DNA of 57,776 bases from Nanobdellota archaeon (GCA_038046545.1 JBBSVZ010000005.1:1-57776), one strand, 5' to 3'. Shown: positions 26,461-46,479, counted from the first letter of the stretch. Made by a program: numbers and translations. Notes: generated from the letters alone by a model not told the origin.

Positions 26461-26550
26461 TGAACTATTAAGTACTCTGGGCCAAACCATTAGCCTACTA
26501 AATGTTGTTTTATCGCATTGGGGAGTTTTCAGCTTAAAAAACTTCTAAAT

Positions 26551-26655
26551 ATGCGCTCACACGCCGCGCGGGCTCTATTGTGTTGGGCGTTTTATTGTCG
26601 CAAAGCGACTTTGGAGCGCCGCATATTAATTCTTGGCCAGCACGGCCTGGAGTGC
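26551..26655 (-). repeat. Copy B (inverted orientation) of the GC-rich intergenic element
   Basis: The reverse complement aligns with 45757-45866, including the core AGCCCGCGCGGCGTGTGAGCGC and the hairpin GTCGC-TTT-GCGAC. Confidence 0.6.
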
Positions 26656-26692
26656 AAAATATAATTTAGACCCTGCATTTGATACGATAGGG

Positions 26693-31162: not shown

Positions 31163-31190
31163 CAAGCCCGCGCGGCGATTGAGCGCATAT
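31163..31190 (+). repeat. Copy C (core only) of the GC-rich intergenic element
   Basis: CAAGCCCGCGCGGCGATTGAGCGCATAT followed by T7. The GCCCGCGCGGCGATTGAGCGC core is identical to that of copy D. Confidence 0.6.
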
Positions 31191-45677: not shown

Positions 45678-45756
45678 GCGCTAAAAAGTGAAAACGAGGT
45701 TTAAAAAGTTTGTTAACTTGGGGATTAGTCTTGAAAAAGGTACAACCAATTATTTT

Positions 45757-45866
45757 CCGCTCCAGGCCGCGGAGGCCATGTCTCGTATCATTTCGCTTTA
45801 GAGTCGTTTCACGACAAGAAAGCGCAGGAAGCGAATAAGCCCGCGCGGCGATTGAGCGCTTATTTT
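45757..45866 (+). repeat. Copy D (full length) of the GC-rich intergenic element
   Basis: CCGCTCCAGGCCGCGGAGGCC ... GTCGT-TTC-ACGAC ... AAGCCCGCGCGGCGATTGAGCGCTTATTTT. Confidence 0.6.
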
Positions 45867-45903
45867 GAGGAAATTTACATTACGCGAACCTGAGGCATTT
45901 CAA

Positions 45904-46479
45904 TCAATTGGATTTAACTTTTTGATTTGCATTAACTAGCGCTTCAAGAAGCCTTGCCTTAAGTTGGATATCATCGGGAGTATCGGGGTAAGAATTCATT
46001 TTCTCATTTACGCCATCTTCAATGTCAATCTGCATTTGCTGTGTGTCTGTATTTGTCAAAACTATCCACCATGGGAATTTCACTTTTATCCTTCCGTTTT
46101 TCTTTGCTTGTATCGAAGTCTCAATAGAATAAGCCAAAGGGATTAATGCGAAAAGCTTTGATTTGTATGTATATTTGGTTATGACTTTGTCATCACTTGC
46201 TTGCGCGTCCTTCAATTTTGAGTCAGCAAGCTTTTTATTAATTATCCACTCTGCCAGATCTTGTTTTGTTGAAACTTCCGTTTTCTTAAAGTCTGTTCCA
46301 GAACTTATTTCTAAAGGCTCTTGAGGCGCAGGAAATGTCTTGTTTTTTGTTTCTATTGCTAGCCTTTGGCTTTCTTCAACAGATGTTGGCTGAGTTGTTT
46401 GAGTGGGCACAAATATGTCTTCAGCTGCAAATACTGATGCAATCAGCAACACCGCTAAACACCAAATAAGCAATTTCAC
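45904..46479 (-). CDS. Secreted hypothetical protein (191 aa)
   Basis: N-terminal signal peptide MKLLIWCLAVLLIASVFA. Confidence 0.55.
   Translation of the reverse strand: MKLLIWCLAVLLIASVFAAEDIFVPTQTTQPTSVEESQRLAIETKNKTFPAPQEPLEISSGTDFKKTEVSTKQDLAEWIINKKLADSKLKDAQASDDKVITKYTYKSKLFALIPLAYSIETSIQAKKNGRIKVKFPWWIVLTNTDTQQMQIDIEDGVNEKMNSYPDTPDDIQLKARLLEALVNANQKVKSN

Follow-up and report, generated by a model that had tools for sequence, protein, structure and literature searches.

The GC-rich intergenic sequence at positions 45757-45866 of the window (the whole stretch of 57,776 nucleotides analysed here, from the genome of a Nanobdellota archaeon) is probably part of a lineage-specific, non-coding, non-autonomous mobile repeat family, which inserts in a MITE-like manner, has a REP/BIME-like mosaic build and carries a short module whose fold is under selection. 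We propose that one strand of the module, as single-stranded DNA or RNA, forms a miniature H-type pseudoknot, and that this fold, rather than a protein-coding function or that of a trans-acting small RNA (sRNA), would be what selection maintains. The fold could act as a propagation signal or could render the insert harmless, and an outward-facing pair of modules would present one correctly oriented module per strand whichever way the element inserts. Our best guess from the sequence comparisons is that the module is a signal read in single-stranded form, as RNA or as DNA. The host is a tiny DPANN archaeon whose assembly (1.57 Mb in 198 contigs, 40.8% G+C, 93% complete) derives from Hainich groundwater, and the public names of its closest L10e and PAC2 homologues agree with a Woesearchaeota-type member of this group.

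The initial annotation described four copies, A to D, as a candidate sRNA family or miniature repeat, and all four sit where it placed them, with the tails it reported (T7 in copy C and T4 in copy D). Their core, GCCCGCGCGGC-N3-TGAGCGC, occurs four times in the window, and the pattern GCCCGCGCGGCNNNTGAGCGC likewise has four matches there compared with none in 100 dinucleotide shuffles. The count of four holds for the window but not for the genome, where the family is far larger: 52 cores are found in the 1.57 Mb at up to two mismatches, with none for the reversed control, and 61 at up to three. The general form of the module fits about 100 genome sites (115 in the pairing-blind search described below), and there are about 25 long copies.

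The 100-110 nt that were initially taken as the whole element turned out to be the middle of an element of ~180-195 bp. The long copies share similarity over ~35 nt of flank on the left and ~46 nt on the right, and the consensus sequences of these arms (...CCCGAATTTGAGACAATAA and ...CCCGCAGATGCGACAAAAC) form imperfect inverted repeats that match at ~13 of 19 positions, with individual copies being more divergent. Exact direct repeats of 7-10 bp are present at the outer element boundaries, in one register, in six copies: GTTCTCAGT in copy A (9 bp), TTAACTT in copy D (7 bp), CTAACTGA in C170 (8 bp), TTTTAATC in C108 (8 bp), TTTTTAGTAA in C103 (10 bp) and GATAGAA in C90 (7 bp). Three further copies have a duplication with one mismatch.

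The full inserted element of copy D is 194 bp long (45720-45913, plus strand) and is bounded by the TTAACTT duplication at 45713-45719 and 45914-45920. It is made up of a left arm, an inverted module (45757-45777; read on the minus strand as GGCC-T-CCGC-GGCC-TGGA-GCGG), a central hairpin (45794-45824, plus strand; lower stem CGCTTT/AAAGCG, upper stem GTCGT-TTC-ACGAC), a core module (45839-45859, plus strand; GCC-C-GCGC-GGC-GATTGA-GCGC, a putative H-type pseudoknot) and a right arm. The module model R1 matches the core with 43.5 bits and the inverted module with 33.6 bits (45752-45779, minus strand). Copy A is an element of 182 bp (6089-6270, plus strand) between duplications at 6080-6088 and 6271-6279, with a core at 6204-6224 and a decayed inverted module at 6124-6143. 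Copy B, which lies between converging genes, has approximate bounds of 26507-26690 (minus strand) because its arms were placed by similarity to other copies, and no clear target-site duplication was found at them; R1 matches both its core (26553-26573, minus strand) and its inverted module (26635-26655, plus strand). Copy C is a solo core module (31166-31186, plus strand; R1 match), with the stop codon of a 408-aa minus-strand gene (31212) on one side and the TATA box serving the next gene on that strand on the other.

Closer relatives, which we reached through the flanking proteins L10e and PAC2, have uninterrupted sites where the window has copies A and D. At the copy A locus, relative L189 (Logan SRR8426596) has a syntenic block in which L10e is 86% identical, and its gap upstream of L10e is 57 nt, containing TTCTTGAGT once and then the promoter found in the window, AACCTTTTTAAACAATC, compared with 271 nt in the window. 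At the copy D locus, the PAC2 homologues of L191, L192 and L193 are 89%, 84% and 72% identical, respectively. In all three, the stop codon upstream of PAC2 is followed directly by TTAACAAACTTTTTA, and the TTAAC... of the left duplication is single in this junction between stop codon and promoter. The gap between the 191-aa gene and PAC2 is 226 nt in the window and 38-39 nt in L192 and L193. When one copy of the duplication is removed, the joined window flanks align gap-free across the junction with L189 for copy A and with L191, L192 and L193 for copy D; the empty site in these relatives is a stop codon and then, directly, the BRE/TATA promoter of the next gene. The duplications, taken together with the uninterrupted sites in relatives, prove that copies A (6089-6270) and D (45720-45913) were inserted after the divergence of these lineages.

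Copies of the module are present in the relative GCA_053533555.1 at other loci, right after stop codons and with further variants of the helix that we call S2 below. In 150 further genomes of the order the repeat family is missing, as is the exact core pattern in 60 relatives. The miniature-repeat half of the initial description is thus borne out by target-site duplications, imperfect terminal inverted repeats, empty orthologous sites and a genome-wide count of dozens of copies in all orientations. At the place of copy B, the window (26461-26692) has only the repeat where L189 (17965-18656) has a GDSL-lipase gene, standing between a lipase-like gene and a DUF1761 gene, which suggests that a gene was lost or replaced here.

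The core is an instance of a GC-rich module of 20-21 nt that consists of S1a (3-4 nt), 1 nt, S2a (4 nt), S1b, a 4-6-nt loop ending in GA, S2b (4 nt) and an AT-rich flank, such that the helices S1 (3-4 bp, typically GCC for S1a and GGC for S1b) and S2 (4 bp) cross. An AT/U-rich tract lies 3' of the module, and no consistent run of at least five T was found there among the genome copies. Read on the other strand, the 5' region has the architecture of the core (GGCC-T-GCAC-GGCC-AGGA-GTGC), and in short copies it reads GCC-T-GTCC-GGC-GATTGA-GGAC, with a GATTGA identical to that of the core. The 5' GC hairpin that had been noted initially (GGCC-N5-GGCC) does exist in copies B and D and is degraded in A, but it is no separate feature: it is the module of the 3' core, lying on the other strand.

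Modules are found solo, as abutting pairs with an 11-12-nt linker, as pairs with a 44-nt or 61-nt linker, and as convergent pairs. The long form is a module pair within the ~180-195-bp element and runs from the 5' GGCC-N5-GGCC to CAATTAA and the core, with a two-tier central hairpin in between that has a variable stretch on either side. This element is two-fold symmetric, being an imperfect palindrome with one module on each strand, and contains only short incidental open reading frames (ORFs) in its interior. In short copies the 5' region and the core are 11-12 or 44 nt apart, with extra hairpins placed into a loop in some, and solo cores often have a small variable hairpin (AGTGTTGC...) just before them. 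A second hairpin module (TCGGAAATC...GATTTCCGA and TCGAAAATC...GATTTTCGA) sits within loops of the pseudoknot module; it is present upstream of cores in the C103:31571 and C122:3000 regions and at C54:5559, C85:19618 and C90:16877, and suggests a kit of several mobile hairpin units. Two coding features were considered and rejected as inconsistent between copies, namely small peptide ORFs after the GGCC hairpin (for example, MAELAAL) and the right-arm ATG as a start codon; this ATG belongs to the terminal repeat.

A scan of the genome that required the module architecture returned 141 sites, compared with 10 in shuffled sequence. To guard against circularity, we re-seeded the search with a pairing-blind pattern, G[CG]C-N5-G[CG]C-N2-4-GA-N4 plus an AT-rich flank. 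S2 is perfectly paired in 88 of the 115 sites found in this way and is represented by 12 pair types (GCGC, 41; GCAC/GTGC, 17; GTCC/GGAC, 8; CCGC/GCGG, 7; GCCC/GGGC, 5; GTCT/AGAC, 4; and six rarer types). When the 3' strands of S2 were swapped among sites, a mean of 29 and a maximum of 39 sites were perfectly paired in 1000 trials. We then aligned the 105 distinct module sequences with MAFFT. The crossing structure (((.[[[[)))......]]]] has 90.9% of its cells paired in this alignment, as against 27-45% in slid registers, and 116 cells are doubly changed, compared with 34 +/- 4.7 in shuffles, a value reached by none of 500 shuffles. Double changes occur at all four S2 pairs. The only free pair of S1, 2-10, is C-G in 75 of the sequences and G-C in 23, and the remaining 7 leave it unpaired. 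The perfect pairing of S2 above the permuted level and the double changes in the crossing structure indicate that both interleaved helices are under selection for complementarity, although the counts overstate the number of independent events because the copies are related by descent.

Variation that preserves structure extends to the rest of the element, but the crossing helices S1 and S2 of the core show it most strongly. In an alignment of 20 long copies, all four pairs of the inverted module's outer helix covary, and only 77% of cells are paired in the lower stem of the central hairpin. The compensatory change that had been seen at the fifth pair of this hairpin (C:G in copy B and T:A in copy D, with one mismatch in copy A) is confirmed and proves general, with C-G in 9, U-A in 8 and A-U in 1 of the 20. 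Copy D does not fold to a significantly lower energy than shuffled sequences do (z = -1.2 and -1.6). Thus, the evidence for structure is covariation, not thermodynamics.

In an H-type pseudoknot, a short loop L1 spans S2 and a longer loop L3 spans S1. The module has an L1 of 1 nt and an L3 of 4-6 nt on its sense strand, whereas L3 would be 1 nt on the complementary strand, so that by textbook stereochemistry the geometry fits a possible H-type pseudoknot on the sense strand only. The module probably folds as such a miniature pseudoknot; two alternative, mutually exclusive hairpins would give the same covariation. G-U pairs outnumber A-C mismatches by 5 to 1 in S2 (115 sites) and by ~16 to 8 in the long elements, a wobble excess that weakly favours the sense strand as the functional one. 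We considered other structures and rejected them. For a K-turn or K-loop (an L7Ae site) formed by GA...TGA, only about one copy in two has A at position 13, modules of the inverted type carry C instead of G at 1b, and the supposed bulge GGC pairs with GCC. A bulge-helix-bulge splicing motif would lack its inner helix. A triple-helix role for loop 1 was also set aside; L1 tracks the S2 type, though not cleanly.

Across the whole genome, TTTATA/TTTAAA peaks 30 nt before the ATG, which implies that mRNAs are mostly leaderless and that the 40-60-nt spacers are almost entirely promoter. TATA boxes often read C(C)TTTTTAAA, as at 6283-6290 and 45695-45703 in the window. A gap of 3-5 nt separates copies A and D from the C(C)TTTTTAAA box downstream, which belongs to the next gene, and TATA-like boxes follow the duplication by 3-6 nt in C108 and C103. 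Of the 13 copies that precede a gene of their own orientation, 8 are located 83-97 nt before its ATG. This placement between stop codon and promoter would reflect either targeting or the sole position that is tolerated in spacers of 40-60 nt. As stated initially, the copies are intergenic and follow no orientation rule: they occupy all gene-orientation contexts (17 convergent, 10 divergent and 31 tandem), with no significant bias in orientation or context. Relative to the two flanking genes, solo modules are (opp,opp) in 22 cases, (same,same) in 15, (same,opp) in 13 and (opp,same) in 5.

We searched the genome for an enzyme that could mobilise the repeats. The Y1 transposase/RAYT family (PF01797) has no matches, although the control genomes were positive, and TnpB (PF07282) is absent. 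Given these absences and the presence of target-site duplications, we rejected IS200/IS605-derived elements and TnpB omega-RNA as sources of the family. Retro-insertion was rejected because no reverse transcriptase was found in the genome. A CRESS-type Rep was not found either, in a search whose own control was also silent, and the genome has no multi-copy transposase-like paralogues. The only DDE transposase (DDE_Tnp_1, PF01609; C153:1994-2812) is IS5-like, and it was dismissed as a partner because its 20-nt terminal repeat, TTCGGCTGCGTCCTGAATCT, is unrelated to the ends of the repeat family. The insertion sequence to which it belongs is single, spans ~0.9 kb (C153:1911-2812, locus L208), encodes a transposase of 272 aa and has 20-nt terminal inverted repeats (TTCGGCTGCGTCCTGAATCT / AGACTTAGGACGCAGCCCAA); a degraded copy is on C120. 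Among the transposase families covered, no autonomous element sharing the ends of the repeat family was found in the assembly, which could miss such a partner because it is 93% complete and in 198 contigs. The length of the duplication varies (7-10, possibly 12 bp), which is unusual for one transposase. Classical MITEs mobilised by DDE enzymes need no internal structure. Simple cut-and-paste transposition therefore leaves a strongly selected pseudoknot unexplained.

We looked for the module beyond this lineage. Scanning metagenome contigs with the exact pattern gave many chance matches within high-G+C genes. Bacteria also contain a recurrent repeat, often in tandem, which consists of a hairpin, CAAG, two further hairpins, GA, the identical core GCCCGCGCGGCGCTTGAGCGC and AUAAAA. 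Asticcacaulis genomes have ~10-15 copies each, with compensated S2 variants (TCGC/GCGA, GCGT/ACGC, GTGC/GCAC and GCCC/GGGC), and the multi-copy distribution is patchy among the 300 Alphaproteobacteria sampled. In a 1.6-Mb alphaproteobacterium (G288, loci L194-L203), 45 copies lie within a ~130-nt multi-hairpin unit in which a closing helix, ATACC/GGTAT, surrounds a variable hairpin, the module and a second hairpin; the module of this unit ends in GCGA, and its last S2 pair is not complementary. Three high-G+C metagenome contigs (L033, L136 and L086) have bare 21-nt modules arranged head-to-tail with a 25-nt period and without spacers or other hairpins. In a viral contig (L211) and a metagenome contig (L115), a long stem carries the module as its 21-nt loop (GGAGTTGGAGGC-A-module-GCCCCCAACTCC). 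The exact 21-mer in a Parcubacteria metagenome-assembled genome from Rifle groundwater (L153) lies in an apparent protein-coding frame (...EARAALERIFSHLG...) and is most likely a chance match, not a repeat copy. Against Rfam, the bacterial loci gave only tRNA or sub-threshold noise, and their contigs have no recurring neighbour protein beyond response-regulator and kinase domains. Plasmid records leave the bacterial repeats unannotated, and string searches of the literature for the motif gave no relevant match.

Modules also occur in five IMG/VR contigs of 2.06-2.2 kb (L213, L216, L218, L222 and L230), each with a CRESS-type Rep (PF02407) and an Arg-rich Cap. These contigs have two tandem modules in an intergenic position upstream of a stem-loop with CAGTATTAC or CATTATTAC. 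The modules are 30-190 nt upstream of this nonanucleotide stem-loop, on the strand of the nonanucleotide and of rep, in two Rep lineages, and the second unit of L230 is compensated, with ACGC pairing with GCGT. The viral modules may be captured host repeats, since MITEs common to viruses and hosts have been documented (PMC11602168), or may work as folded single-stranded DNA (ssDNA). Because the module otherwise occurs in prokaryotic genomes, the CRESS-like viruses that have it might have prokaryotic hosts.

These distributions allow a broader proposal, which we put forward tentatively and consider more doubtful than not: that the 21-nt module (GCC-N-S2a-GGC-GNNTGA-S2b) is an undescribed, cross-domain structured single-strand signal, common to archaea, Alphaproteobacteria and CRESS-DNA viruses, which would make it the hallmark of a new superfamily of mobile repeats, the 'hairpin-pseudoknot' type. 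Conserved machinery of the host or of the element would then recognise the module, for example in priming or mobilisation. In another reading, drawn by analogy, the module would fold as an sso/ssi-like single-strand origin or initiation signal that recruits the priming and replication machinery of the host, which would explain both its presence on the virion strand of CRESS-DNA viruses and its spread in cellular repeats. The five ~2.1-kb Rep/Cap contigs, with two tandem modules on the nonanucleotide strand in two Rep lineages, speak for such a role, as do the compensated second unit of L230 and the identity of the sequence across the archaeon, Alphaproteobacteria and viruses. However, the viral modules could be captured host repeats, chromosomal copies have no obvious need for priming signals, and the archaeal genome yielded no Rep gene (with the control of that search silent), and we consider this role unlikely. 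Somewhat better placed, though still improbable in our estimation, is a cis-acting RNA module, also proposed by analogy, for which E. coli REP sequences offer a precedent as 3' UTR stabilisers. In a read-through 3' UTR the pseudoknot would block 3'-5' exonucleases or aid 3'-end formation or insulation; a symmetric pair would work in either orientation, and such a function would be compatible with mobility if it were exapted or made the insert harmless. Many sense solo modules start 0-13 nt after a stop codon (C26, C54, C134, C184 and C185), stop-adjacent modules are also found at L193 and L190 in a relative, the loop lengths permit an H-type fold on one strand only, and an AT/U-rich tract follows. 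Against this, roughly every second solo module runs antisense to its neighbouring genes, and a run of at least five T after the module is not consistent.

The other half of the initial description, a family of trans-acting sRNA genes of ~100 nt, is very unlikely. In its favour, the helices covary, the elements are GC-rich islands in AT-rich spacers and an AT/T-rich tract follows the core, but copies A and D are missing from the orthologous sites of relatives and have target duplications, each strand of the imperfectly palindromic element carries a module, and the copies stand in no consistent relation to genes. Nor do they have a promoter of the genome type (TATA at -30) at a fixed distance upstream, or a consistent oligo-T, which also led us to reject an intrinsic terminator. 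At the gathering threshold, Rfam recognised only an intron-containing tRNA in the whole window, copy D had no match even at E<=10, and the family is absent from the 150 genomes of the order. A preQ1-type riboswitch-like pseudoknot, hammerhead or twister cores, a CRISPR repeat (suggested by a GATTGAAAC-like tail) and ToxI-type antitoxin arrays were rejected because they have no Rfam match and the genomic behaviour does not fit them. It is extremely unlikely that the module is instead an unfolded double-stranded DNA target to which a regulator or an architectural protein binds. Such a site could explain why GCCCGCGCGGCG-N-TTGAGCG is kept in very distant organisms despite a noncomplementary last S2 pair (G288, G375 and G190), and many copies do lie just upstream of promoters. 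Others, however, lie between converging genes, and the archaeal S2 has at least eight unrelated sequences that are always complementary (GCGC, GCAC, GTCC, GTCT, CCGC, GCCC, GTAC and CTCC), which makes a single protein reading the duplex implausible.

The reading that we prefer, a mobile repeat family with a selected module fold, can be set beside known systems. The elements resemble MITEs in being 182-194 bp long, non-coding, multi-copy, intergenic and lineage-specific, with empty sites in relatives and target-site duplications whose sequences are single-copy in relatives for A and D. A high density of MITEs has been reported for a Woesearchaeal genome (PMC11602168). The family departs from MITEs in that no related autonomous insertion sequence was found here and the duplication length is variable (7-10 bp), in that the interior is not neutral filler but two inverted modules with covarying crossing helices, and in that the module also occurs solo, in abutting pairs and in convergent pairs. 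These last arrangements recall the REP/BIME/REPIN repeats of Proteobacteria, which are mobilised by RAYT Y1 transposases: both are short, GC-rich structured units that occur dozens of times and only outside genes, either alone or as inverted pairs joined by a few types of linker, and often just after stop codons. Unlike those repeats, the module has two crossing helices (a putative pseudoknot) rather than a simple imperfect palindrome, it has no conserved GTAG head, its genome has no Y1 transposase, its long form makes target-site duplications and its host is an archaeon. The third likeness, drawn from general knowledge of the literature and a matter of resemblance rather than membership, is to the ssoA, ssoU, G4-type and phiX-type ssi elements of rolling-circle plasmids and ssDNA phages, which are also folded, non-coding and specific in strand and orientation; in the CRESS-like contigs, the module is likewise intergenic and on the nonanucleotide strand. 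Those known elements comprise 70-300 nt of hairpins, as opposed to a 21-nt putative pseudoknot, and share no sequence similarity with it.

Many selfish repeats would not be expected in small symbiotic archaea with very compact genomes. In this genome, about 100 copies of a structured module occupy the few bases between stop codons and promoters, and two of the insertions can be dated against relatives. For annotators, the lesson is that an intergenic island in a DPANN genome may be GC-rich and covarying without being an RNA gene. Because the module is maintained by base-pair covariation, it would act as a folded strand, and it may point to a mechanism of mobilisation or priming that has not yet been described. 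The module shared with CRESS-like contigs may also help to link uncultured viruses to their hosts.
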